Part shown: piece by piece, positions 19,828-37,906 of the stretch
How positions within the stretch are numbered: position 1 is the first letter of the stretch
Layout of the letters: every line of letters begins with the position of its first letter
DNA from: a virus
DNA length: 64,000 nucleotides
Direction: 5' to 3' (one strand)
Virus record (IMG/VR): IMGVR_UViG_3300044655_002046
Notes under the pieces: generated by a model
Seen by the model: only the letters and a program-made list of their open reading frames with translations
Told to the model about the DNA's origin: nothing
The model's database searches: none
Made by a program: the position numbers and the translations under genes

Positions 19828-19945
19828 GTTAGAATTAATCTCAATCCCTAGTAGGGTTTGAGATTCACCATTATCATACTCAACGTAATTGGTTAATAGT
19901 AGGTGTTATTGTGTATTAGTTTTAAACCCTACTAGAGATTGAAAC
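19828..19945 (+). CRISPR. Degenerate repeat-spacer-repeat mini-array, type I-D-like repeats
   Basis: 37-mers at 19828-19864 and 19909-19945 match the Microcystis I-D repeat as I recall it (GTTCCAATTAATCTTAAACCCTATTAGGGATTGAAAC) at 29/37 and 28/37; 44-nt spacer; no cas genes in the window. Confidence 0.6.
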
Positions 19946-20012
19946 TGATTGAATTATGGTAGATTCCCAATCCGAATATTGATAAGATAACTTTTTATTT
20001 AGGAGACACAAA

Positions 20013-20279
20013 GTGATTACTGCAAAACAATTAAAAGAGTTTTTGGCGACCGTTGAAGACAATGCGCTTATTTTTATAGGGAAAAGCGGAGGGATGTCTT
20101 ATGGTTGCCAAGATTTTATGGTTAAGAAGGAATTGTTTATAGAGAAAGAAGACCAGTTTCTTGATTCTCTAATTTGGGACCACGACTTCGATGACGAAGA
20201 AATTGAAAAGCTTGAGAAGGAAGCTATCGAGCGACAAGCTGTCTATTTACAATACTACCCAGATTGGGGAGAAGATTAA
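20013..20279 (+). CDS. Acidic hypothetical protein between CRISPR-like repeats
   Basis: 88 aa, AGGAG RBS, GTG start, AT-rich island. Confidence 0.7.
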   Translation: MITAKQLKEFLATVEDNALIFIGKSGGMSYGCQDFMVKKELFIEKEDQFLDSLIWDHDFDDEEIEKLEKEAIERQAVYLQYYPDWGED

Positions 20280-20293
20280 ATATTAAGGAAAAA

Positions 20294-20330
20294 GAAACAA
20301 TTAAGTTTAAGCTTTATTAGGGATTGAAAC
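20294..20330 (+). CRISPR. Solitary type I-D-like repeat
   Basis: GAAACAATTAAGTTTAAGCTTTATTAGGGATTGAAAC; 29/37 to the recalled repeat, last 16 nt identical. Confidence 0.6.
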
Positions 20331-20342
20331 TGATACTAAACA

Positions 20343-22514: not shown

Positions 22515-22953
22515 TAGGCCGTGGTACTACGTTATATATAAGGGCCCCGATTCTTATATAGGTGTGACTGATTATCTCGCGGCCGTGGCGTATGATAATC
22601 GGACTAGTCTAAGTTTTATGACGCAGCGGAGTAGATTACTCAACTACTTGAAGAAGGGTCGCGCAGATTACAAGACCAGTATTCGCCTAGCCCTCGCTAT
22701 CAAGCCCGCCAGTGTGGCAGGTTATGGTAACTATCTAGTAAGACAGAGGGGACACCTATCAGTTATTGAGCGGTGTGATGTTAGTACTCCTCATAGTCAT
22801 AAGCATTTGAAGTCCGCGCGGATCGAGCTGATTAGCTACCTCGAGGGCGAGATGAACCGATGGAGTAAAACAATTAGGACTATACGGAGATTAGATGCAG
22901 ATAACATTCAACGGCCCCTACCAGATGCTACTGGGCCCGGCAGGGAGTGGTAA
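22498..22953 (+). CDS. Hypothetical protein
   Basis: 151-aa ORF overlapping both neighbours. Confidence 0.65.
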   Translation: MSILDNRPWYYVIYKGPDSYIGVTDYLAAVAYDNRTSLSFMTQRSRLLNYLKKGRADYKTSIRLALAIKPASVAGYGNYLVRQRGHLSVIERCDVSTPHSHKHLKSARIELISYLEGEMNRWSKTIRTIRRLDADNIQRPLPDATGPGREW

Positions 22954-24073
22954 GACAACATACATACAGAGTTTGAGTAAGGCCCTCATTACTAGTAGTA
23001 CTGGCGTGAGCGCTATTAATGCAGGCGGTACTACCATTCACGCAGCCCTCCAGTTCTTCGACACTACTAGTCTATTACGCTCCGCTTCTGCTGGGACGCT
23101 GGCTACTAAGCTACGGGCTATATCTAATCTCTTCGATACCCTAGTCATAGATGAGATCAGCATGCTGCATGGCCCGCAGCTATCTATTATTCATTACGTA
23201 ATGGAGAAGAATAACATAAATATGAATCTCCTACTTGTGGGGGACTTCTGTCAGTTACCGCTAGTACCAGATAGGAAGGTTACTAGCACGCCGGTATATC
23301 AAACAGAATGCCTGCAGAACTTCGATATACAGTATTTACGGGAGGTCAGGCGTCAAAGCGACCCAGGCTTCATACAAGCACTGACTAGCGTAAGAGAAAG
23401 ACGGCCTCACGAAGCAGTAGATTGGTTCATGGATAATGTAGAGTTTGTCAATCAGATCGATAATAACTACGCGGGTACTACTATCCTGACTACTAATGAT
23501 AGTGTAGATAGATATAACGCCCTGCACCTAGCGCAACTAGAGGGGCCTAGTCGTCTCTACGCTAAGAATTATGTTATACCGAAGGGGGGCAGGGCCGCTC
23601 CTGAGTGGGGCCAAATACCTGAATCAGTAGAGCTAAGGAAAGGTGCCCGCGTTATTATACTTCGTAATAGGCTGCCTACATACGCTAATGGTGATATCGC
23701 TGTAGTCAAGGAGCTCATGACTGATACTATACTGGTGACAGTAGAACGTACCGGTCAGGAGACTATCATTGAATACGTGACACGAGATAATAAAGAGCTC
23801 GGCACTAACAAACTATTGGGGCGCTGCCACTACTTACCCGTTAGACTCGGTTATGCTCTCACTGTTCATCGTAGTCAGGGACTCACGCTTAATAACGTAC
23901 AGGCCCGTCTCAGTAATTTACGTTGGCTCAGCGGGGGCCTCTATACTATTCTTAGTCGTGTACGTCACTATAGCGGCCTCCGCCTGATAGGTACACGATC
24001 CACCTTCTGTGATAGTTGCTATATAGAGCCCTCTATTCTTAAATTCTATAATCAGTTAGGTACTAAATCATAA
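22895..24073 (+). CDS. SF1B (PIF1/RecD-like) helicase
   Basis: GPAGSGKT, IDEISM, GDFCQLP, VRRQSD, ALTVHRSQG, LSRV. Confidence 0.92.
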   Translation: MQITFNGPYQMLLGPAGSGKTTYIQSLSKALITSSTGVSAINAGGTTIHAALQFFDTTSLLRSASAGTLATKLRAISNLFDTLVIDEISMLHGPQLSIIHYVMEKNNINMNLLLVGDFCQLPLVPDRKVTSTPVYQTECLQNFDIQYLREVRRQSDPGFIQALTSVRERRPHEAVDWFMDNVEFVNQIDNNYAGTTILTTNDSVDRYNALHLAQLEGPSRLYAKNYVIPKGGRAAPEWGQIPESVELRKGARVIILRNRLPTYANGDIAVVKELMTDTILVTVERTGQETIIEYVTRDNKELGTNKLLGRCHYLPVRLGYALTVHRSQGLTLNNVQARLSNLRWLSGGLYTILSRVRHYSGLRLIGTRSTFCDSCYIEPSILKFYNQLGTKS

Positions 24074-24964: not shown

Positions 24965-25351
24965 ATGCTTACTGAATTTTTGCATGATTGGGTCAAGTCT
25001 GAGCCTCACATTTGTGGGTATGGGTTGGGTACTTTTCGGAATACCTTTTTTATCGAACTATCTTGGGGTGATTGGATTTCTATCTCTACCTCTGGTCCTA
25101 ATCCCTTTTTGTTAGATAGAGGGTCGCTTGCTAAGTTGATCTATTTTTTTCAAATGCGACTAGATAGCTTTGGCTATGGCTGGGTTATTCAACGATTACC
25201 TAATAGTTATACTGTGACAGTTACCGTGAACCCCAATATTTACGAGACTTCACGTTGTTTTGTCTCTCGGCAAGAGTCTCTCATTGAGGCTCTGCTAGAG
25301 GTGTATTTAGAGGCGGTTGCTTATAAGAAAAAGTCGCTTTACGTTCAGTAA
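24965..25351 (+). CDS. Hypothetical protein
   Basis: 128-aa ORF immediately upstream of the array. Confidence 0.65.
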   Translation: MLTEFLHDWVKSEPHICGYGLGTFRNTFFIELSWGDWISISTSGPNPFLLDRGSLAKLIYFFQMRLDSFGYGWVIQRLPNSYTVTVTVNPNIYETSRCFVSRQESLIEALLEVYLEAVAYKKKSLYVQ

Positions 25352-25364
25352 AAGAAGGCATCTA

Positions 25365-25586
25365 ATGAAAGAGATTAGTACAAATTATTGGGCGCCCCAT
25401 AATGATTATGGGGCGCCTCATAATGATTATCTATGGGACGCACCTATACCTATTACTAACCCGCCAATAGCAAACGGTGATACTTTATACTATAGCTTCT
25501 ACGTTTATAATGCTGGGGGGCCCGCCAAGTTTTACGATAGACTGACAGGAAATGTTGAGGACGGTTATTTCGATGAAGATGATTAA
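25365..25586 (+). CDS. Array unit
   Basis: MKEISTNYWAPHN...GYFDEDD. Confidence 0.6.
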   Translation: MKEISTNYWAPHNDYGAPHNDYLWDAPIPITNPPIANGDTLYYSFYVYNAGGPAKFYDRLTGNVEDGYFDEDD

Positions 25587-25770
25587 TTCTGACAATTGGG
25601 CCCCTCGTAATAGAAGAGCCCCGCATGCGTGGCTATATACTAAACCTATTACTGACCCGCCTGTTGACCAACAAGTGTATTTTGCTTATAGTCGAGAAGT
25701 CGCCTGGTTTTATTATAGACTAGGAGAATTTGCGTTATATGGCTTTTATGGGGGGCGATTACTTCAATGA
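25573..25770 (+). CDS. Array unit
   Basis: MKMINSDNWAPRN...GGRLLQ. Confidence 0.6.
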   Translation: MKMINSDNWAPRNRRAPHAWLYTKPITDPPVDQQVYFAYSREVAWFYYRLGEFALYGFYGGRLLQ

Positions 25771-25976
25771 GAGCGATTAGCTGTAATAAGCTTAATTACT
25801 TGTTTTATTATTATGAGGATGTGACCGTCGAGAGTCATATTCCTGAATTAAGCAGGTGCTCTATCGCCTATCATTACTACTATGAAAGCATGGGTGTCGA
25901 GGTTTATATCCTTGAACTGAACAAGTTACATGTTCCTATCCACCTGTTTTATCATAGATTAGGACATGTGTTATAA
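25767..25976 (+). CDS. Array unit
   Basis: MRAISCNKLNY...FYHRLGHVL. Confidence 0.6.
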   Translation: MRAISCNKLNYLFYYYEDVTVESHIPELSRCSIAYHYYYESMGVEVYILELNKLHVPIHLFYHRLGHVL

Positions 25977-26005
25977 TAACATTCTAGATAAGGACGGTTA
26001 TTTCT

Positions 26006-26188
26006 ATGAAGATGATTAATTGTAATGATTGGGCCCCTCGTAATAGAAGGGCTGCGCATATACGGGATATACCTGTACCTACTACTAACCCGTTGATAGC
26101 AAACCGGAATAATTTATACTATAACTTTCATACTTATAGTGCCGGAGGAGTCGCTTGCGTTTACCGTAACCTATCATTATTTCTATGA
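26006..26188 (+). CDS. Array unit
   Basis: MKMINCNDWAPRN... Confidence 0.6.
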   Translation: MKMINCNDWAPRNRRAAHIRDIPVPTTNPLIANRNNLYYNFHTYSAGGVACVYRNLSLFL

Positions 26189-26400
26189 AGAAGATTAATT
26201 GTAATGGTTGGGCTCCGCGTAATAAGCCGGTTCCGTATGAGTGGAGCGCACCCATACCTATTACTAACCCGTTGATAGCAAACGGTGATAGTTTATACTA
26301 TACTAACTTTCATACTTATAGTGCCGGAGGAGTCGCTTGCGTTTACCGTAACCTATCTGAGCCTACTATAACCTACCATTATTTCTATGAAGAAGATTAA
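26185..26400 (+). CDS. Array unit
   Basis: MKKINCNGWAPRN...YFYEED. Confidence 0.6.
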   Translation: MKKINCNGWAPRNKPVPYEWSAPIPITNPLIANGDSLYYTNFHTYSAGGVACVYRNLSEPTITYHYFYEED

Positions 26401-26593
26401 TTGTAATGATTGGGCCCCACGTAATAAGCTGTTTCCATATAAGTGGGGCACCGCACCTATACCTATTACTAATCCGTTGATAGCACACCATAGTAGTTTA
26501 TACTATAACTTTTATGTCGGAGGAGTCGCTTGGGCTTACCATAACCTATCTGAGCCTACTATAACCTACCATTATTTCTATGAAGAAGATTAA
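26387..26593 (+). CDS. Array unit
   Basis: MKKINCNDWAPRN...YFYEED. Confidence 0.6.
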   Translation: MKKINCNDWAPRNKLFPYKWGTAPIPITNPLIAHHSSLYYNFYVGGVAWAYHNLSEPTITYHYFYEED

Positions 26594-26780
26594 TTGTAAT
26601 GATTGGGCTCCGCGTAATCAGGTTCCAGATGACTGGGCCGCACCCATACCTATTACTAACCCGTTAATGTTGATAGTAACCCGTAATTATTTATACTACA
26701 GCTTTCATACTTATAGTGCCGGAGGAGTCGCTTGCGTTTATCATAATATAACCTATCTTAAATGGGCTTCGTATGAATGA
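26580..26780 (+). CDS. Array unit
   Basis: MKKINCNDWAPRN...WASYE. Confidence 0.6.
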   Translation: MKKINCNDWAPRNQVPDDWAAPIPITNPLMLIVTRNYLYYSFHTYSAGGVACVYHNITYLKWASYE

Positions 26781-26920
26781 AGTGTACCTGTACCTACTAC
26801 TGTTCCTCCAATAGCAGATGGTTATAGTTTATACTATAACTTTCATACTTATGGTGCCAGAGGAGTCGCTTGCGTTTACCGTAACCTATCATTATTTCTA
26901 TGTAACCTATCATTATTTTT

Positions 26921-27115
26921 ATGAAGATAATTAATCCTAACGGTTGGGCTCCTCGTGATATTAAATGGGTTTCGTATGCATGGAATGCACCTGTACCCAT
27001 TACTAACCCTCTGATAGCAGATAATAAGTTATTCTATAACTTCTATTTTTATGGTTCTAGAGGAGGGCCTGCTTGGTTTTACTATGGATTGTTATATTTC
27101 GATGAAGATGATTAA
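26921..27115 (+). CDS. Array unit
   Basis: MKIINPNGWAPRD...YFDEDD. Confidence 0.6.
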   Translation: MKIINPNGWAPRDIKWVSYAWNAPVPITNPLIADNKLFYNFYFYGSRGGPAWFYYGLLYFDEDD

Positions 27116-27320
27116 CGGTTGGTCTTCACGTAGTAAACTGAATACATATATCACTGACCCGTCGATTTTAGCAGACAGTGATAGTTTATACTACAGTTTC
27201 TATAACTATAACTTTCATACTTATAACGCTGGGGGGCCCGCCAGGTTTTACCATAGACTAGTGGGAGTAGCGTTGTATAGCATTCTAGATGAAGATAATT
27301 ATTTCGATGAGGATGATTGA
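27102..27320 (+). CDS. Array unit
   Basis: MKMINGWSSRS...YFDEDD. Confidence 0.6.
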   Translation: MKMINGWSSRSKLNTYITDPSILADSDSLYYSFYNYNFHTYNAGGPARFYHRLVGVALYSILDEDNYFDEDD

Positions 27321-27492
27321 TTGTAATAATTGGGCCCCGCATAATAAGTCAAATATACCTATACTTATTACTGATCTGCTTATTAATGCAAACGGCTTAT
27401 TCGTATTTTTCGCCTGGTTTTATTATAGATTGGGAGCATCAGTGATATATCACTTTCTGAATAAGGATGGTTATTTCCATGAAGATAATTAA
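27307..27492 (+). CDS. Array unit
   Basis: MRMIDCNNWAPHN...YFHEDN. Confidence 0.6.
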   Translation: MRMIDCNNWAPHNKSNIPILITDLLINANGLFVFFAWFYYRLGASVIYHFLNKDGYFHEDN

Positions 27493-27676
27493 TTCTAACG
27501 GTTGGGCTCCGCGTAATGTTAAATGGGCTTCGTATCATGAATGGAGCGGGCCTGTGCCTATTACTAGCCAGTCTATACTAAGTGATGGTAATTTATACCA
27601 TAGCTTCTATGTTTATAGGGAGGCAGGGGGGCTCGCTAAGTTTTACTATACATACCTATCACTAATCCGCCTCTAG
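27479..27676 (+). CDS. Array unit
   Basis: MKIINSNGWAPRN... Confidence 0.6.
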   Translation: MKIINSNGWAPRNVKWASYHEWSGPVPITSQSILSDGNLYHSFYVYREAGGLAKFYYTYLSLIRL

Positions 27677-27797
27677 TGAACGTTGATAATTTATACGATA
27701 GCTTTTATGTTTATGATGATGATGAAGAGGCTCGCTATATCTTATTATAGATTGGGAGCAGTGATATATCACTTTCTAAATAAGGATGGTTATTTCA

Positions 27798-28010
27798 ATG
27801 AAGATAATTAATTGTAATGGTTGGGCTCCTCGTAATAATCCGGTTCTGTATGAGTGGAGCGCACCCATACCTATTACTAACCCGTTGATAGCAAACGGTG
27901 ATAGTTTATACCCTAGCTTTTATGATTATAATGCTGGAGGAGTCGCTTGGGTTTACTATAACCTATTTGGGCCTACTATAACCTATCATTACTTCTATGC
28001 AGATAATTAA
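27798..28010 (+). CDS. Array unit
   Basis: MKIINCNGWAPRN...YFYADN. Confidence 0.6.
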   Translation: MKIINCNGWAPRNNPVLYEWSAPIPITNPLIANGDSLYPSFYDYNAGGVAWVYYNLFGPTITYHYFYADN

Positions 28011-28206
28011 TTGTAACGACTGGACCCCACGTCATAAGTTAAATCTACCTATGCCTGTTAGGATTTATCTTAGGATTTATTATTGCGATGGCGCGGGTGT
28101 CCCAATCTATCTACCTGAATTAAATATTGACCAGTTTTATTATAGGTTGGTAAGCGTGTTATATAACATTCTAGATGAGGACAGTTATTTCAATGAAGAA
28201 GATTAA
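27997..28206 (+). CDS. Array unit
   Basis: MQIINCNDWTPRH...YFNEED. Confidence 0.6.
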   Translation: MQIINCNDWTPRHKLNLPMPVRIYLRIYYCDGAGVPIYLPELNIDQFYYRLVSVLYNILDEDSYFNEED

Positions 28207-28354
28207 TTCTTACTATTGGGCCCCGCTTAATATAAGACTTAAGACTGAGTGGACTCCATACACACCTGATGTGGAGCTTGATATGTTTTATTATGTACTG
28301 GCAAGAGTAGTATCCATTTTAGATGAAGACAATTGCTTCTATGAAGATGATTAA
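28193..28354 (+). CDS. Array unit (53 aa, not in track)
   Basis: MKKINSYYWAPLN...CFYEDD. Confidence 0.55.
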   Translation: MKKINSYYWAPLNIRLKTEWTPYTPDVELDMFYYVLARVVSILDEDNCFYEDD

Positions 28355-28502
28355 TTATGAGTGGGACGCACCCATACCTATTACTAACCCGTTGATAGTA
28401 AACCGTAATTATTTATACTATAACTTTCATACTTATAGTGCCGGAGTAGTCGCTTGGGTTTACTATAACTTATCATGGATCATTACCACTACGAAAGTAT
28501 GA
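28341..28502 (+). CDS. Array unit (53 aa, not in track)
   Basis: MKMINYEWDAPIPITNP... Confidence 0.55.
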   Translation: MKMINYEWDAPIPITNPLIVNRNYLYYNFHTYSAGVVAWVYYNLSWIITTTKV

Positions 28503-28601
28503 GTGTGGGTCTCTGGGTTTATCTACCTGAATTAGATAAGTTTTATGCTTCTATCAAGTTGTTTTATTATAGACTGACACTGTTCGCTAAGGACAATTTC
28601 T

Positions 28602-28784
28602 ATGAAGATAGTTGATAGTGACAAATGGGCCCCACGTGATAAGTTGAATCTACCTATGTCTATTAGAGTTTATTATTACGATAACACAGGTCTTGTAAAT
28701 ATCGACCGGTTTTATTATAGACTGGTAAGCGTGTTTTATTATAACATTCTAAATGAAAACGGTTATTTCGATGAAGATGATTAA
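28602..28784 (+). CDS. Array unit
   Basis: MKIVDSDKWAPRD...YFDEDD. Confidence 0.6.
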   Translation: MKIVDSDKWAPRDKLNLPMSIRVYYYDNTGLVNIDRFYYRLVSVFYYNILNENGYFDEDD

Positions 28785-28953
28785 TTGTAACAATTGGGCC
28801 CCGCATAATAGATTAAATATACCTATTACTGACCCGTCTGTTGACCTGCAGGTGTATTTTGCTTATAGTCCTGGAAGACTCTCCTGGTTTTATTATAGAC
28901 TGGGAGAATTTGGGACATATGGCTTTCTGAATGGGGGGCAGTTACTTCAATGA
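28771..28953 (+). CDS. Array unit
   Basis: MKMINCNNWAPHN...GGQLLQ. Confidence 0.6.
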   Translation: MKMINCNNWAPHNRLNIPITDPSVDLQVYFAYSPGRLSWFYYRLGEFGTYGFLNGGQLLQ

Positions 28954-29122
28954 GAATAATTAGTTGTAACAAGCTTAATTACTTTTTTATTATTGTGAGC
29001 GCGTGGGTCTCGATACCTATACTCCTGAATTAAGGTTTTATGCTGTCGACCGATGTTACTATAGACTGGTAGCTGTGATATACGACATAGTAGATAAGCG
29101 TACATTTTATGAAGATGATTAA
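28950..29122 (+). pseudogene. Array unit frameshifted in a T6 run
   Basis: One base shorter than paralog 25767 at TAC-TTTTTT-ATTATT; restoring it gives ...CYYRLVAVIYDIVDKRTFYEDD. Confidence 0.6.
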
Positions 29123-29282
29123 TTGTAACGTTTTCAAACTTGCTTTGTTTTACGACTGGACTATCAAGAATAAGCTAAAGGCCCATACACTTATTACCTC
29201 TGTCGACAGGTTTTACTATAGACTAGTGGCTTTTATATATAACGCTCTATATGAGGATGATTATTTTGATGAAGAAGATTAA
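29109..29282 (+). CDS. Array unit (57 aa, not in track)
   Basis: MKMINCNVFKL...YFDEED. Confidence 0.55.
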   Translation: MKMINCNVFKLALFYDWTIKNKLKAHTLITSVDRFYYRLVAFIYNALYEDDYFDEED

Positions 29283-29454
29283 ATCTCACAATTGGGCTCC
29301 TCGTTATGCGTGGACTCCATACATACCTACCACTAATCCGCCTCTAGTGAGCATTGATAATTTATACGATAGCTTTTATGTTTATAATGATGCTGGGGGG
29401 CTTGCTATGTTTTATTATATACTGGCATCACTTTCTGATAACAGATGGTTATAG
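29269..29454 (+). CDS. Array unit
   Basis: MKKIKSHNWAPRY... Confidence 0.6.
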   Translation: MKKIKSHNWAPRYAWTPYIPTTNPPLVSIDNLYDSFYVYNDAGGLAMFYYILASLSDNRWL

Positions 29455-29592
29455 TATAAACTATAACTTTCATGCTTATAATAATCAAGGGCTTGCTTGG
29501 TTTTACTGTAACCTATCATTAAGGGCTCGCTATATTTTATTATAGATTGGGAGCAGTGATATATCACTTTCTGAATAAGGATGGTTATTTCA

Positions 29593-29796
29593 ATGAAAAA
29601 GATTAATTGTAACAATTGGGCCCCTCGTAATGTTGATTGGGCTTCGCATTATGAATGGAGCGGGCCTGTGCCTATTACTAGCCCGCTTATACTAAGTGAT
29701 GATATTTTATACTATAGCTTCTATGCTTATAATACTGGGGGGCCCGCTAAGTTTTACTATTTACTGATCCGCCCGTTAACCTACACGGATTATTAA
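29593..29796 (+). CDS. Array unit
   Basis: MKKINCNNWAPRN...; near copy of 27479. Confidence 0.6.
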   Translation: MKKINCNNWAPRNVDWASHYEWSGPVPITSPLILSDDILYYSFYAYNTGGPAKFYYLLIRPLTYTDY

Positions 29797-29901
29797 GCAA
29801 ATTGTATTTTGCTTATAGTCTTGGGAGACTTGCTTGGTTTTATTATAAATTAGGAGAACTTGTAATATATAGCTTTCTTAATGAAGAGGACGATTACTTC
29901 A

Positions 29902-30129
29902 ATGAGACTAATTAACTGTGACGAGCACATTGACGAGCACATTCAGATAAGTGACTTATTAGTTAAGCTCGATTATTATATTGCCTTGTTTTATTATGAG
30001 AACATGGGCCTCGATACCTATACTTTTGAATTAAGTAAGTTCTCTGGCTCTATCAACTTGTTTTATCATAGATTAGAACATTTACATAACACTCTAGATG
30101 AGAACAATTATTTCTATGAAGTTGATTAA
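29902..30129 (+). CDS. Array unit
   Basis: MRLINCDEH...YFYEVD. Confidence 0.6.
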   Translation: MRLINCDEHIDEHIQISDLLVKLDYYIALFYYENMGLDTYTFELSKFSGSINLFYHRLEHLHNTLDENNYFYEVD

Positions 30130-30289
30130 TTGTGACGCCCTGTTTTATTGTATGAGGGTATGTGTTTTTACAACTCCTGTACCTGAATTAGTCAGGTTCC
30201 ATGGTTCTATCAACCTATTTTATCATAGATTAGGAGATGTGTTATGTAGCATTCTAGATAAGGACGGTTATTTTGATGAAGATGATTAA
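30116..30289 (+). CDS. Array unit
   Basis: MKLINCDALF...YFDEDD. Confidence 0.6.
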   Translation: MKLINCDALFYCMRVCVFTTPVPELVRFHGSINLFYHRLGDVLCSILDKDGYFDEDD

Positions 30290-30554
30290 TTGTAACAATT
30301 GGGCTAATAACGATTGGACTCTACGTAATAAGTCGAATATACCTATACTTATTACTAACCCGCCGATTTTACTAAATGGTGATAATCTATACTATCTATG
30401 GGTCTATCGTTACTATCATAAAAGCATGGGTCTCGGGGCTTATATCCCTGAATTGGACAAGTTATATGATTCTATCGACTTGTTTTATTATAAACTATCA
30501 AATTTGTTATATGACTTTCTAGGGGAGGGGGATTATTTTTATGAAGAGGATTGA
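30276..30554 (+). CDS. Array unit (chimeric, long)
   Basis: MKMINCNNWAN...PILITNP...MGLGAYIPEL...YFYEED. Confidence 0.6.
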   Translation: MKMINCNNWANNDWTLRNKSNIPILITNPPILLNGDNLYYLWVYRYYHKSMGLGAYIPELDKLYDSIDLFYYKLSNLLYDFLGEGDYFYEED

Positions 30555-30732
30555 TGACTGGGCTCCGCGTATGCCTATATCTATTACTGATCTGCCCGTT
30601 GACCTAGACAGATCATTAACCAAATTGTATTTTGCTTATAGTCCTAGAAACCTTGTTTATTATAGATTAGTAGTTCTTGTAATATATAGCTTTCTTAATA
30701 GAGAGAACGATTACTTCAATGAGAGTGATTAA
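30541..30732 (+). CDS. Array unit
   Basis: MKRIDDWAPRM...YFNESD. Confidence 0.6.
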   Translation: MKRIDDWAPRMPISITDLPVDLDRSLTKLYFAYSPRNLVYYRLVVLVIYSFLNRENDYFNESD

Positions 30733-30892
30733 CTGTGACGCCCTGTTTTATTGTATAAGGGTATGTGTCTTTACAACTCATGTACCTGAATTAGTCAGGT
30801 TCCATGGTTCTATCAACCTGTTTTATCATAGATTAGGAGATGAGTTATATAACATTCTAGATGAGAACAGTTATTTCGATGAAGATGCTTAA
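30719..30892 (+). CDS. Array unit (57 aa, not in track)
   Basis: MRVINCDALF...YFDEDA; near copy of 30116. Confidence 0.55.
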   Translation: MRVINCDALFYCIRVCVFTTHVPELVRFHGSINLFYHRLGDELYNILDENSYFDEDA

Positions 30893-31058
30893 TTGGGACG
30901 CCCCGTTTTATTATCATGAGGGTATGTGGCTTATAACTTATATACCTGAATTAGACAGGTACCATGGTTCTATTTCTATCAACCCGTTTTATTATAGATT
31001 AGGAGATGAGTTATATAACATTTTATATGAAGACGGTTATTTCGATGAAGATGATTAA
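30879..31058 (+). CDS. Array unit
   Basis: MKMLNWDAPF...YFDEDD. Confidence 0.6.
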   Translation: MKMLNWDAPFYYHEGMWLITYIPELDRYHGSISINPFYYRLGDELYNILYEDGYFDEDD

Positions 31059-31245
31059 ACGTAACAATTGGGCTCAGCGTAATAGATTAAATATATCTAT
31101 ACCTATTACTGATTCGCCCATTGACCTACACGAATTAATAGCTTATAGTCCTGGGAAACTTTCTTGGTTTTATTATAGATTAGGAGAACTTGTAATATAT
31201 AGCTTTCTTAATAGAGAGGACGATTACTTTAATGAGAGCGATTAG
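31045..31245 (+). CDS. Array unit
   Basis: MKMIKRNNWAQRN...YFNESD. Confidence 0.6.
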   Translation: MKMIKRNNWAQRNRLNISIPITDSPIDLHELIAYSPGKLSWFYYRLGELVIYSFLNREDDYFNESD

Positions 31246-31405
31246 TTGTAATAAGCTTAATTACTTATTTTATTATTATGAGGATGTGACCCTCGAGAGT
31301 CATATTCCTAAATTAAGCAAGTGCTCTATCAACCGGTTTTATTATAGACTGGTAGCTGTAATACACAACATACTATATAAGTATACATTCTATGAAGATG
31401 ATTGA
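31232..31405 (+). CDS. Array unit (57 aa, not in track)
   Basis: MRAISCNKLNY...FYEDD; paralog of 25767. Confidence 0.55.
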   Translation: MRAISCNKLNYLFYYYEDVTLESHIPKLSKCSINRFYYRLVAVIHNILYKYTFYEDD

Positions 31406-31550
31406 TAACGATCTCGGGCTTGCTTTGTTTTACAACTTGATTCTGTACAATTGGAATGTGTATAATAAGCTGAAGGGGGCCTCTATACCTGTTAACGCTG
31501 TCAACCTGTTTTATTATAGACTGGTAAATGTATTGGATAACACATTTTAG
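31392..31550 (+). CDS. Array unit (52 aa, not in track)
   Basis: MKMIDNDLGL...LFYYRLVNVLDNTF. Confidence 0.5.
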   Translation: MKMIDNDLGLALFYNLILYNWNVYNKLKGASIPVNAVNLFYYRLVNVLDNTF

Positions 31551-31596
31551 ATGAGAATGAATAAAGATGACATTATACATAAGGACGGTTATTCTG

Positions 31597-31791
31597 GTGA
31601 AGACTATTATATGTGACGAGTTAACTCTACACAATAAACTTAGAGCCTCTATGCTTATTGAGCCTTCCGTTAGGGCAACCGGCTTAGTGTCTAGGTTTTA
31701 TTTAATGAGCAGGTATTACATTGGTTCGTTTTACTCTAGATTATATAGCGCTCTAGATGAGAGTGATTACTTCAATGAAGAATATTTCTAA
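31597..31791 (+). CDS. Array unit (GTG start)
   Basis: VKTIICDELTLHNK...YFNEEYF. Confidence 0.5.
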   Translation: MKTIICDELTLHNKLRASMLIEPSVRATGLVSRFYLMSRYYIGSFYSRLYSALDESDYFNEEYF

Positions 31792-32038
31792 CGATTGTCT
31801 GTTATCTTGGACTTTGAATAATGATTATCTCAATGCTTTGCGCTTGTTTCATTATTATGAAGTGATGGGTTTCGAGATCTATACTCCTAAACTAAGCGAG
31901 TGTTGCGGCTCTATCTTCCGGTTTTACTGTAGATTGATAAATATGTTAGAAATCATCCTAGATGAAGATGATATTTTAGATGAGGGCGATTATTTCGATG
32001 ACTATTATGAGGATAGCTATTTCGATGAAGACTATTAA
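31775..32038 (+). CDS. Array unit
   Basis: MKNISND...YFDEDY. Confidence 0.55.
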   Translation: MKNISNDCLLSWTLNNDYLNALRLFHYYEVMGFEIYTPKLSECCGSIFRFYCRLINMLEIILDEDDILDEGDYFDDYYEDSYFDEDY

Positions 32039-32234
32039 TCATAACGATTGGTCTCTGCTCAATAAGCTTAAGACCTCTATGCTTATTGAGCCTTCCGTTG
32101 GTGAGCTACAGGTGTATTTGTATTTTTTTTATTTTGTTTGTAGTCCTGAGAGAGTCAACCGGTTTTATTATAGGCTGGTAAGCGTGTTATATAACATTCT
32201 AGATGAGGACGGTTATTTCAGTGAAGACTGTTAA
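32025..32234 (+). CDS. Array unit
   Basis: MKTINHNDWSL...YFSEDC. Confidence 0.55.
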   Translation: MKTINHNDWSLLNKLKTSMLIEPSVGELQVYLYFFYFVCSPERVNRFYYRLVSVLYNILDEDGYFSEDC

Positions 32235-32391
32235 TTGTGAGATTTGGCCTTTACACAATAAGCTGGAGGCCTCTATGTTTATACCTGAATCCCCCATTGA
32301 GACAGATGGCTTAATACGCAAGTTTTATAATTGTGATTCTTTTGAACTTGCCTTGTTTTATTACAGATTGGAAGTATGCAATTTATATTAG
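32221..32391 (+). CDS. Array unit (terminal, GTG start)
   Basis: VKTVNCEIWPLHNK...FYYRL. Confidence 0.5.
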   Translation: MKTVNCEIWPLHNKLEASMFIPESPIETDGLIRKFYNCDSFELALFYYRLEVCNLY

Positions 32392-32677
32392 AGGGCGATA
32401 TGTGGCGCGATAGACGAGATATAAATATATGGCCTGAACCGTGTCGAAGGTATCTCTTGAGAACGGTAATATGGATGACATGGGGTGGCCCTAGACGCCG
32501 GCGGTAATAGTATATTGAGGTGCCTGTTGAAAAAACTATCCGAGATATTCTTATGGAACGGGCCACGGGTAAGTGACATCACTTATCTCGAACATCTTGC
32601 CATTAACAGGCAATATGTATTAATGTTTAAGTTTAAGCTTAGTTATTATAGGGCATTCATACAATATACGGAGAGCG

Positions 32678-33871
32678 GTGACGAGAGAGAATGAACAACT
32701 GATAATGGAGCGGCTAACTATACCAGAGCTATTAAATCTACGGCACGGTACTAATGATTGCCCTGCTTGTGGAGGCCGCGGTAAGCTGAGTGTATATCCA
32801 CACTATATGAAGTGCTGGAGGACTAGTTGTGAGTTGAATACAGGGATGGGCCTGATTAATGCCTGGCGTTGGCATACTAAGCTTGATTATGCTGGCGCTA
32901 TGCGGCAGTTAGAGGCCCGCGCTGGTATACGTCAGGCCCGCGAGGTTATGGATGCTCGCAGTATGATATTAGAGAGCGCTCTAGAGGCCTATCATTATTA
33001 TCTTGATGCTACGCCTGCTGCTCAGGACTATATACTGCGGCGAGGCTGGTCTCTTGATCTAGCTCATAGTATTGGTATAGGGTATGCCCCTCCTGGTGGG
33101 TTACGTCAATTCGATATAGATCATGAGGCATTAGCCCGCGAGGGTCTCATTCAGGAGGACGGTGAGGATTACTATAGGGAACGCATTATATTCCCTATAC
33201 GAGATATACGAGGTCATCTAGTTCATATGGTTGGCCGCTATATAGGTAATAGTGAGAGGGCCCCCCGCTATAAGGATACACGGGCTGTTATTAATAGTAA
33301 GCGCTATGTCTATCTAGAACACTGTCTTAAGGAGTATGCTAGTCATCCATCTCGCGAGTTGTATATAGTTGAGGGCCCGCCTGATGCCACATCACTGGTA
33401 GGTCGTAGTTTACCTGTAGTGGGGCTATTGGGTCTGGAGTATCTATTATGTCACACCAGTAAGTTCAAGCCCTTCCGCCGTATCACGTTTATATTCGACT
33501 CAGATAAGTATAGCGATGACCACCCTACTCATGCCGGTGTATATAAGAGCTGGGTACGTATCATACCTCAGCTAGTTCAGCTGCAGGTTAACTTACCATT
33601 AGTTGAGTTCATGACGTATATGGTTGCTGATTATAAGGACATTAATGAGTGGTTGGTGGCAGAGCCTCGTGTTAATGCTGCTGATACTATTAATGCTAAC
33701 CGTATACCATTCATAGATGATTTACTAGCCCAATGGGGGCCCGACATTAATCATCACGTAGATATACTGCGGGTATTGACTGCCACTCATTCTTCTCTAG
33801 GGCTACTGTCCCCTTATGTAGATAATAAATTAGGGCCCCTTGAATATGCCTCTCTACTATTCGGATCGTGA
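32678..33871 (+). CDS. dnaG: DnaG-type DNA primase
   Basis: Zinc finger CPAC..C..C, YRERIIFPI..GR, TOPRIM YIVEGPPD and FDSD. Confidence 0.88.
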   Translation: MTRENEQLIMERLTIPELLNLRHGTNDCPACGGRGKLSVYPHYMKCWRTSCELNTGMGLINAWRWHTKLDYAGAMRQLEARAGIRQAREVMDARSMILESALEAYHYYLDATPAAQDYILRRGWSLDLAHSIGIGYAPPGGLRQFDIDHEALAREGLIQEDGEDYYRERIIFPIRDIRGHLVHMVGRYIGNSERAPRYKDTRAVINSKRYVYLEHCLKEYASHPSRELYIVEGPPDATSLVGRSLPVVGLLGLEYLLCHTSKFKPFRRITFIFDSDKYSDDHPTHAGVYKSWVRIIPQLVQLQVNLPLVEFMTYMVADYKDINEWLVAEPRVNAADTINANRIPFIDDLLAQWGPDINHHVDILRVLTATHSSLGLLSPYVDNKLGPLEYASLLFGS

Positions 33872-36471: not shown

Positions 36472-36969
36472 ATGCTTAGCATTCAAGTTCGTCAGGGTGT
36501 ATTTGAAACTAATAGTTCGAGCACCCATAGTATATCTATTCCGCGTCAGACCAGCCTTACTATCCCTGAATCAATACACTTCGAGATTGGCCAATTTGGT
36601 TCTGAAAATAGTATCCTGAGTTCCATAGCAGCCAAGGCCAGTTATTTATACACTGGCTTCGCTGCTAACGATAGGATGAAGGATGCTTATGACATGATAT
36701 TCCATCTGTTATCAGAGGGTATTGCTGTAACTACCGAGGATGTAGTATATGACGAATATCGCACTATGCTTAATGATGGCTACATGGATCACGCCAACGA
36801 GTTGAACGGCTTCCTCGATGCTATTGTAGCTAATAAGGATATGATGATGCGTTATCTATTCTCGCCCTATAGCTTTATCCTAACCGGTAGTGATAATGAC
36901 TACAGTTATCTGATTGATAATAAGAAAGTGATGAAGTATGCTAGTGACTTCTTTTACAAGGGCAATTAG
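36472..36969 (+). CDS. FETNSSS-motif protein (partner of radical SAM gene)
   Basis: QVRQGVFETNSSSTHSISI, GYMDH. Confidence 0.75.
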   Translation: MLSIQVRQGVFETNSSSTHSISIPRQTSLTIPESIHFEIGQFGSENSILSSIAAKASYLYTGFAANDRMKDAYDMIFHLLSEGIAVTTEDVVYDEYRTMLNDGYMDHANELNGFLDAIVANKDMMMRYLFSPYSFILTGSDNDYSYLIDNKKVMKYASDFFYKGN

Positions 36970-37906
36970 ATATCACTACCCCCGTCTTATGAATAAGTTT
37001 AATGAATTGACAACCTTAGCGCATTATATTAACGGTGACTATGAGTGTACTCTATATGCTGATGGTACCCTGGTCCGTACTACAAGTGTGGTTGGGGCCC
37101 GCCCTGCCTATCCCTGCTCTATAGATATTAAGATCACTGACTACTGTGATATGGGATGTAAGTATTGTCATGAGAGTTCTACTCGTAATGGTGAGCACGC
37201 TGATCTAACACAGTTACTGAATGTCCTTAGTGATATACCTGCTGGGGTCGAGTTAGCAAACGGAGGGGGTAATCCATTATCTCATCCTGATATAATGGAT
37301 TACCTAATAGAACTTAAGGCCCGCGGGCTTATAGCTAACATTACTGTTAATCAGGGTCACCTGCATCGCTATGCTGCTCTAATAGAGGATATCGTAAGTC
37401 AGGAGTTAGTGCGGGGCCTCGGCATCTCAATCACTAATAGTAACTATAGTAGTCTGATACCAGTACTGCATCTCTCAGATAACATCGTGTATCACCTCAT
37501 CGCCGGTATTCATTCCGTTAGTATAATCGATGAGTTGGTTAGCCTCAGTACTGCAGCCAGTAAGGTACTCGTCCTAGGCTATAAGAACTTCGGCTTCGGT
37601 ATAGACTACCATAGCCCTGAGGTAGATGCAGGCATAGCGCAGTGGCGGCGCCTCTTACCATTTCTTATAGGTAAGTGTAATCTCTCCTTCGATAATCTGG
37701 CTATCGAGCAACTAGAGCTCAGACGTTTATTCACTGATGAGGGGTGGGCCCGCTTCTATATGGGCGATGACTTCCAGTTTACTATGTATATTGATGCGGT
37801 TAAGCAGCAGTATGCTCCTACTAGTCGTAGTTATAACCGTACGTCATTCGACTCTACTTCACTAATCGATTACTTCCAGGCAGGCTTCCCATGCACATCA
37901 AGCTAG
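36938..37906 (+). CDS. Radical SAM protein
   Basis: DIKITDYCDMGCKYCHESS (CxxxCxxC), GGGNPL; start may be the internal ATG (MNKF). Confidence 0.9.
   Translation: MLVTSFTRAIRYHYPRLMNKFNELTTLAHYINGDYECTLYADGTLVRTTSVVGARPAYPCSIDIKITDYCDMGCKYCHESSTRNGEHADLTQLLNVLSDIPAGVELANGGGNPLSHPDIMDYLIELKARGLIANITVNQGHLHRYAALIEDIVSQELVRGLGISITNSNYSSLIPVLHLSDNIVYHLIAGIHSVSIIDELVSLSTAASKVLVLGYKNFGFGIDYHSPEVDAGIAQWRRLLPFLIGKCNLSFDNLAIEQLELRRLFTDEGWARFYMGDDFQFTMYIDAVKQQYAPTSRSYNRTSFDSTSLIDYFQAGFPCTSS

Follow-up and report, generated by a model that had tools for sequence, protein, structure and literature searches.

A tandem family of small, recombining genes between the helicase and primase genes of a Microcystis phage related to Ma-LMM01

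Introduction

Why should a phage genome carry, between two of its replication genes, dozens of very short reading frames that are all related and never identical? The question is raised by a 64,000-nucleotide (nt) stretch of viral DNA, IMG/VR record IMGVR_UViG_3300044655_002046 (the whole stretch is referred to below as the window), in which positions 25365-32391 of the plus strand are occupied by such an array. A first-pass annotation of the window had described about 33 coupled micro-genes of 52-92 amino acids (aa), regarded them as a candidate new phage system and as a recombination-diversified repertoire with constant anchors and variable middles, and called for a comparison of unit number and order among related phages, for selection estimates, and for profile and structure searches. 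It also held that a lack of translation, with dN/dS near 1 and randomly accumulating stop codons, would point to a non-coding satellite.

The window phage is a relative of Microcystis phage Ma-LMM01, a Ma-LMM01-type myophage of the genus Fukuivirus. Phages of this type are the main cultured lytic phages of bloom-forming Microcystis strains. The analysis described here leads us to conclude with high confidence that the array is a translated, recombining and fast-evolving gene family. The best overall explanation, which we favor with moderate confidence, is that the array is no satellite but a family of genes for small phage proteins in tandem, whose likeliest function would be that of a host-interaction repertoire.

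Organization of the array

The array consists of 34 intact units of 46-93 aa, each of about 200 bp, which together tile 90% of its span (Table 1). After alignment all of them fell into one family. A profile made from the 34 units detected about seven partial or frameshifted fragments in the gaps of the tiling, and no further copy elsewhere in the window on either strand. The units begin with a constant block, MK.INC..W (the form MK.INC..WAPRN being present), and share a constant FYYRL core, after which comes a short hydrophobic stretch (FYYRL-to-L). The optional blocks are PIPITNP, a Tyr-rich block with AGG at its end, and YYYE.MG..IPEL in one or two copies, and most units are closed by an acidic Y-F-D/E tail (LDED.YFDEDD), which is absent from several of them. 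As the blocks combine differently from unit to unit, the build of the units is modular. Tyr makes up 11% of the residues and Y+F+W+H about 21%, while Cys, Ser and Thr are not enriched. The GC content of the array is 34-40% as against 45-47% in the flanks, the decrease being seen at all three codon positions, and the GC skew shows no inflection at the array.

The array itself was thus correctly recognized by the first-pass annotation, the exact figures being 34 units and 46-93 aa instead of those given above. All the shuffled blocks that it had named are present in differing combinations, no two of the 34 aligned units are identical as it had claimed, and its statement that the DNA is AT-rich and unlike the flanks agrees with the GC content.

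In U01, an in-frame 21-nt tandem duplication (window 25384-25430) gives a repeated seven-residue motif; the copies form a 20-nt inverted repeat centered on GGGCGCCCC.

Distribution of the family

The units are homologous to gp137-gp157 of Ma-LMM01, which are annotated as small hypothetical proteins and lie between the genes for helicase (gp160) and primase (gp134). PHROG 4393 was the best or only family for all 9 units tested, with E values from 5e-8 to 1.9e-25 for seven units, and 0.013 and 0.21 for two divergent ones. At the nucleotide level the array region is 81-84% identical, over 32-54% coverage, to those of Ma-LMM01, MaMV-DC, MaMV-DH01 and the MaMV-CH/DL phages. The open reading frame (ORF) runs of these isolates resemble the window array in family, position, strand and chained layout. 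They differ in size, with about 18-26 full units in 4.0-5.5 kb against 34 intact units in 7.0 kb, and in unit content and order, the best-match nucleotide identity of units being 70-94% as compared with 93% in the flanks.

The array is found in every sequenced Fukuivirus, and among 50,697 phage records the family is confined to this genus. An exhaustive profile search of 1.84 billion representatives gave 81 proteins (representatives at 50% identity), which are small family members; the sole exception, a 792-aa low-complexity repeat ORF, was judged to be spurious. By a word-indexed search we obtained 192 clusters at 90% identity; the proteins are unnamed or hypothetical throughout and come from phage-sized or short metagenome contigs. 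One unit used as a query against one genome each of 185,579 species gave no cellular relative.

The locus is thus already public, in GenBank since 2008 and in PHROGs, as a set of hypothetical proteins, and the designation as a new phage system was overstated. Searches of the open literature, with the original Ma-LMM01 genome paper outside their reach, returned no account of the array as a family. The repeat family is not mentioned in the keyword-matched parts of the MaMV-DH01 paper, and searches of the FACHB-524 CRISPR paper and of the ISME J 2025 paper on other subjects brought up nothing about the array. What is new here are the selection figures by site class, the simulation of stop avoidance, the in-frame insertions and deletions (indels) at the population level, and the reconstruction of an in-register exchange.

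Protein-coding capacity and selection

The array is truly protein-coding on four independent counts, namely the codons at conserved residues, the stop codons, the indels and the constraint by site class. First, conserved residues are specified by different synonymous codons: the invariant Tyr is encoded by TAC in 13 units and by TAT in 21, the Leu conserved in 32 of the 34 units by CTG, CTA, TTA or TTG, and the Ala, Pro and Gly anchors by three or four synonymous codons each. Second, stops are avoided. Each unit was aligned by blastn with its best match in four other arrays; in these alignments the annotated frame was interrupted by 4 stops in 3,913 orthologous codons, as against 60.7 ± 7.9 in simulations of neutral substitution with the observed substitution spectrum. 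This corresponds to an avoidance of about 15-fold across all compared units; the other two frames of the same alignments contained 226 and 575 stops. Third, the small indels that distinguish near-identical metagenome strains within the array are of 3, 9, 6 and 15 nt, and the sole 1-nt indel among such strains is intergenic (24899). In the more distant unit alignments, 59% of gap runs have a length divisible by three.

Fourth, the ratio of nonsynonymous to synonymous differences per site (pN/pS) separates two classes of site. The ratio was 0.16 at 14 anchor columns (bootstrap confidence interval 0.12-0.22) and 0.17 at the eight anchors outside the overlap zones described below, in contrast to 1.02 (0.86-1.22) at the variable columns, which are unconstrained or under mixed selection. 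For whole units the ratio is 0.68-0.80, compared with 0.09-0.16 for helicase plus primase. The difference lies in pN, which is about fivefold higher in the units (0.12-0.14) than in helicase and primase (0.02-0.03); pS is equal, about 0.18 for units against their best counterparts and 0.18-0.23 for the two enzymes.

The claim that most frames stay open is thereby borne out far beyond chance, and the selection estimates divide by site class into purified anchors and near-neutral variable columns. Of the pattern proposed for a non-coding satellite, a ratio near 1 was found at the variable sites only, and stops are avoided instead of accumulating.

On the minus strand, the longest frame (122 codons, 31697-31329) was rejected as a gene, as it is not kept open in relatives.

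Junctions between units

At 21 of the 33 junctions successive units overlap by exactly 14 nt, so that the ATG of a unit precedes the stop of the unit before it by 11 nt, within a conserved junction sequence of about 28 nt. Because of this overlap, one set of bases is read in one frame as the acidic tail and its stop, and in another as the MK.IN start of the following unit. The longer starts reading MRTVIS represent upstream in-frame ATGs. The pN/pS of the MRTVIS-start columns is 0.84, almost neutral, while that of the overlapping tail columns is 0.28-0.40, indicating that the tail frame is the selected one in the overlap. Overlaps of this kind, of about 14 and about 32 nt, also occur among the annotated coding sequences of both Ma-LMM01 and MaMV-CH01.

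Since the units are chained by this ATG-before-stop junction, most of them are probably translated by termination-reinitiation, and the coupling noted in the first-pass annotation agrees with the repeated overlap. Termination-reinitiation has reportedly been described for translationally coupled overlapping gene pairs, in which, as in the array, the second start codon precedes the stop of the first gene by a few bases, both genes being encoded on one strand. The array differs from such pairs in that a single 14-nt dual-coding overlap occurs 21 times in series, and in that this overlap provides both the conserved ends of the proteins and the homology for recombination.

Turnover of units among related phages

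In all of 25 related loci the array is flanked by the helicase and primase genes and shares their strand; this placement holds for the window, for 5 isolate loci and for every sufficiently flanked metagenome locus. Across the 25 loci the span ranges from 4.0 kb (MaMV-DC, 18 full units) to 8.4 kb, and the longest array, on a 192-kb metagenome contig, extends over 11.9 kb and comprises 46 full units, the profile giving 62 hits. Across loci whose arrays span 4.0-11.9 kb, the identity of the helicase proteins remains at 92-100%. All isolates, and all metagenome relatives with enough flanking sequence, carry at least 18 full units.

Clustering of 309 units from ten arrays at 85% nucleotide identity gave 53 shared clusters and 68 singletons. 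The arrays share short runs of clusters in differing order and copy number, and the units at the ends are the most stable. Single units are chimeric as well: of 242 unit pairs with at least 92% identity in the C-terminal half, 26 are at most 60% identical in the N-terminal half, while the converse (similar N-terminal half, divergent C-terminal half) was found for 5 of 164 pairs. Over U10-U17 and U19-U21, the nearest record (G001) is 98-100% identical to the window; the intervening U18 matches only a paralogous unit of G001, at 82%, while the other units have been rearranged and show 70-94% identity.

A single exchange could be reconstructed. Three independent metagenome studies contain contigs that closely match the window to the left and right of the array, being near-identical there, and that join position 25971 directly to 27765, omitting 1,793 bp, equivalent to about 9 units (U04-U11); joints known from a single run with short flanks were excluded. 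At this join the tail-less U03 runs in frame into the detached tail fragment 27680-27811, giving a complete unit with the canonical acidic tail and the usual overlap with the start of U12. Because the join rebuilds a complete unit, the breakpoints are at equivalent positions of two paralogous units. Such a difference is expected of an in-register unequal exchange between paralogues, by gain or by loss.

The number, order and block combinations of units thus differ among close relatives, from 18 to 46 full units in shuffled order, in agreement with the proposal of a recombination-diversified repertoire with constant anchors and variable middles.

A diversity-generating retroelement was considered and rejected, since the variation consists of whole-unit and block exchange and not of adenine-specific substitution, and within about 10 kb no reverse transcriptase domain was detected among the ORFs of 100 aa or more. 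The same set of ORFs contains no integrase or cas gene, as the first reading of the window had stated.

Expression and promoter-like sites

In the transcriptome of Ma-LMM01 infection, gp137-gp157 all belong to the middle class B5, with log2 FPKM (fragments per kilobase per million) rising from 0 at 0 h, through 0-2.8 at 1 h, to about 7.3-9.8 at 3 and 6 h (PMC5780444 Table S3). The helicase and primase of Ma-LMM01 are of the middle class too, reaching log2 FPKM of about 10-11, and BPROM-type promoters were called upstream of several units (PMC5780444 Table S3). Among the public runs carrying the window stretch, no RNA run is listed.

Sigma-70-like sites are enriched in the window array (65 against 35.7 ± 5.7), many of them being one site multiplied by paralogy. 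A TTGATA-16 nt-TATACT site recurs inside type-A units (26093-26120, 26272-26299, 26477-26504, 26670-26697 and 28392-28419); it could mark internal transcription starts, or could be one chance match multiplied by paralogy.

Structure and homology searches

The profile and structure searches gave the PHROG family described above and no known domain, as the first-pass annotation had stated. In Pfam no family was found for the units at E values up to 1 beyond chance-level matches, the profile search of PDB sequences gave nothing below E 0.1, and the ESM Atlas gave no usable match. In the defense library PADLOC-DB, one of the 34 units had a chance-level match (E 0.005). AlphaFold2 with family alignments predicted no confident fold, with a mean pLDDT (predicted local distance difference test) of 53 for U24 and 48 for U01; the sole supported element, and that weakly, was a C-terminal helix from FYYRL to L. 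By prediction, the peptides are mostly unstructured.

Function of the array

We propose that the fixed start (MK.IN..W), the FYYRL-to-L core and the usual acidic tail, with about 14 purified anchors in a sequence otherwise nearly free to change, would form a common binding scaffold on which the variable stretches provide specificity. A few long transcripts of the middle phase would carry the chained units, most of which are probably translated by termination-reinitiation, and the conserved junction and core also supply the homology for in-register unequal recombination and gene conversion. Units are added, removed, reordered and chimerized by such events, and for this reason each strain has its own selection from a large pool. 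The product may be a repertoire of host-interaction micro-proteins, for instance counter-defense or takeover factors. Microcystis has one of the largest known antiviral gene sets, and its defense and toxin-antitoxin arsenal is exceptionally large. The pattern of evolution, the restriction to one lineage and this large defense arsenal of the host make host interaction or counter-defense the likeliest function. This assignment, at which we arrive by inference only, is tentative and may well prove wrong. A more specific version, which we consider unlikely as it stands, is that the array is a recombination-shuffled library of micro-protein inhibitors or decoys whose unit types are tuned to different members of the Microcystis defense and toxin-antitoxin systems. 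Strains might then adjust its content and dosage by in-register recombination, making it a viral counterpart of the pan-immune system; this too we hold to be doubtful.

Several observations weigh against this explanation. The variable sites show a pN/pS of about 1 and not above it, so relaxed constraint fits equally well, and about seven units have decayed; individual units are therefore dispensable. Translation is supported by sequence comparison, and the transcript data, of unverified strandedness, come from a relative, Ma-LMM01. Shine-Dalgarno-like GAGGA or AAGGA precedes only 14 of the 34 starts, and coupling is inferred from the layout of the junctions. The link to host defense, and with it the decoy or inhibitor role suggested in the first-pass annotation, finds no partner, no homologue, no fold (pLDDT 48-53) and no match in the defense library.

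Among the alternatives, the constant position of the array in all relatives, with helicase and primase on its two sides and in the same orientation, and the middle expression class common to all three, would also suit replication accessory factors that dock by their acidic aromatic tails onto proteins of the replisome or of recombination, much as single-stranded DNA-binding protein (SSB) tails do. The Y-F-D/E tail, as the most strongly constrained part (pN/pS 0.28-0.40), adds to this. We regard the proposal as improbable, given that such proteins are normally single-copy and conserved and that the array shows a 2.5-fold range in copy number, shuffled order and decay. The acidic tails of SSB are defined by a terminal hydrophobic residue, which the tail of the units lacks; several units have no tail at all, and tail conservation is partly forced by the overlapping start of the next unit.

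The decayed units, the near-neutral variable sites and the large copy-number differences between otherwise near-identical strains could also be the mark of a largely neutral, self-propagating expansion, with selection only for passage of ribosomes or for a few units and with most peptides inert. Such an expansion accounts poorly for the inner anchors outside the overlaps, which are purified while synonymous change proceeds (pN/pS 0.17), for the roughly 15-fold stop avoidance over all compared units, and for the retention of at least 18 full units in all isolates and sufficiently flanked metagenome relatives. Its probability is accordingly set low.

We give little credence to the idea that the units are precursors of ribosomally synthesized and post-translationally modified peptides (RiPPs), with conserved ends as recognition elements and variable middles as cores, processed by a phage radical SAM protein or by host enzymes. 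In its favor are the many such peptides produced by Microcystis, the shortness of the units, their predicted lack of structure, the contrast of conserved ends with variable middles, and a radical SAM gene located 4.5 kb downstream of the array. The protein encoded by that gene, however, matches the generic radical SAM core only (29 bits against family cut-offs of 131-650) and has no detected SPASM or peptide-recognition domain; the primase and other genes separate it from the array, and there is no adjacent maturase. The units themselves have no recognized leader family, such as Nif11 or NHLP, in Pfam, their C-terminus is conserved and not hypervariable, and the Cys, Ser and Thr residues are not enriched.

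Finally, a non-coding AT-rich satellite or iteron replication origin with incidental open frames, to which AT-rich repeated DNA between replication genes and the excess of promoter-like sites (65 against 35.7 ± 5.7) might point, was rejected on account of the stop avoidance, the synonymous codons at conserved residues and the in-frame indels, together with the restriction of all frames to one strand (the longest minus-strand frame not being conserved) and the lack of a GC-skew inflection.

Comparison with known systems

As a recombining gene family with a proposed role in host interaction, the array resembles three known systems in part. The "genomic accordions" of poxviruses are said to arise by tandem amplification of a host-antagonist gene followed by diversification. 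As in these, recombination between tandem repeats alters copy number, copies diverge and strains differ in length; copy-number change through recombination of tandem paralogues is seen here in the 1,793-bp exchange and in the range of 18-46 full units. The poxvirus accordions are transient and involve one known antagonist gene, while the array is a standing one of dozens of old, diverged and chimeric units with overlapping frames. The prochlorosins of Prochlorococcus, which also belong to a cyanobacterial setting, are likewise a large set of short paralogous peptides in which conserved parts stand beside hypervariable ones; the array differs in its lack of a known leader family or adjacent maturase, in its conserved C-terminus and in being carried by a phage. 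Large lytic phages have hyperplastic regions or anti-defense islands of small genes with counter-defense or no assigned function. These are similarly clusters of small, fast-evolving, strain-variable genes, but the genes are unrelated, whereas the array is one paralogous tandem family and is expressed in the middle and not the early phase.

Genomic neighborhood

The surroundings of the array form a replication module, with clamp loader, UvsW-like and RecD-like helicases, primase and a PD-(D/E)XK nuclease. The radical SAM protein (window 36938-37906) shows the generic core only (Pfam 32.8 bits), far below all NCBIfam family cut-offs, and its gene is conserved in relatives beside that of the PD-(D/E)XK nuclease.

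Immediately upstream, a 128-aa ORF (window 24965-25351) ends 13 nt before U01 and has no match in Pfam, PHROG or NCBIfam. The corresponding position directly before the first unit is occupied by ORFs of 131-138 aa in MaMV-CH01, MaMV-DC and MaMV-DH01 and by a 128-aa gene in a metagenome relative, and there is no annotated coding sequence in Ma-LMM01. The gap between the last unit and the primase gene (window 32392-32677; L001:7420-9178; L002:7853-9163) is an insertion hot spot, which contains two transposase genes in Ma-LMM01, three extra genes in MaMV-CH01 and about 290 bp in the window. In the 192-kb contig, a 140-aa ORF with UbiD/UbiD_N Pfam hits lies near the 3' end of the array (L029:12717-13139, minus strand), on the strand opposite to that of the units.

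About 5 kb upstream of the array, window 19834-20334 contains three degenerate copies of a cyanobacterial CRISPR repeat. The repeat handle ATTAGGGATTGAAAC is exact in the third copy (20300-20334) and has one mismatch in the second. Among the matches listed, the 15-mer handle, spaced as in repeats, occurs widely in Nostocales and in further cyanobacteria, none of these matches being a Microcystis record.

Table 1. Positions of the array, its units and the flanking anchor genes in the window
Feature	Position	Strand	Remarks
RecD-like helicase	22895..24073	+	Ma-LMM01 gp160 homologue; conserved upstream anchor
Whole array	25365..32391	+	34 intact units and ~7 decayed fragments; PHROG 4393
U01	25365..25586	+	Type A; in-frame 21-nt internal duplication
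U02	25573..25770	+	
U03	25767..25976	+	Two IPEL-type blocks, no tail; truncated by 1,793-bp segment
1,793-bp segment	25972..27764	+	U04-U11 and fragments; missing from near-identical phages in three metagenome studies
U04	26006..26188	+	Type A
U05	26185..26400	+	Type A
U06	26387..26593	+	Type A
U07	26580..26780	+	Type A; aberrant tail
Decayed unit fragment	26781..26921	+	Profile positions 23-63
U08	26921..27115	+	
U09	27102..27320	+	93-94% nt identity to units of Ma-LMM01, MaMV-CH01, MaMV-DC
U10	27307..27492	+	
U11	27479..27676	+	
Decayed fragments	27640..27811	+	27680-27811: detached tail completing U03 in shorter haplotype
U12	27798..28010	+	
U13	27997..28206	+	
U14	28193..28354	+	
U15	28341..28502	+	
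U16	28475..28615	+	Shortest (46 aa); no MK.IN start
U17	28602..28784	+	
U18	28771..28953	+	6- and 15-nt in-frame insertions in one metagenome strain
Decayed fragments	28899..29119	+	
U19	29109..29282	+	
U20	29269..29454	+	
Decayed or frameshifted fragments	29351..29603	+	
U21	29593..29796	+	
Decayed fragment	29751..29912	+	Profile positions 27-74
U22	29902..30129	+	Type B
U23	30116..30289	+	Type B
U24	30276..30554	+	92 aa; all blocks present; structure predicted
U25	30541..30732	+	
U26	30719..30892	+	Type B
U27	30879..31058	+	Type B
U28	31045..31245	+	
U29	31232..31405	+	
U30	31392..31550	+	
U31	31567..31791	+	
U32	31775..32038	+	Extended acidic tail
U33	32025..32234	+	
U34	32203..32391	+	Last unit; no tail
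DNA primase	32678..33871	+	gp134 homologue; conserved downstream anchor

Implications

The 18-46 expressed, fast-turnover micro-genes represent 3-6% of the genome and are retained in every relative. Being standing, expressed, rapidly renewed and retained everywhere, the array is the most obvious candidate for a strain-specific determinant of host interaction in these phages. It offers a natural example of birth-and-death evolution in a phage, in which one and the same sequence serves as protein end, start, coupling signal and recombination homology. If the units are inert, the array would show how far selfish tandem expansion can reach within a size-limited capsid. If they are inhibitors, it would be a source of many new small anti-defense proteins and could provide a marker for matching phage to host in the control of blooms.

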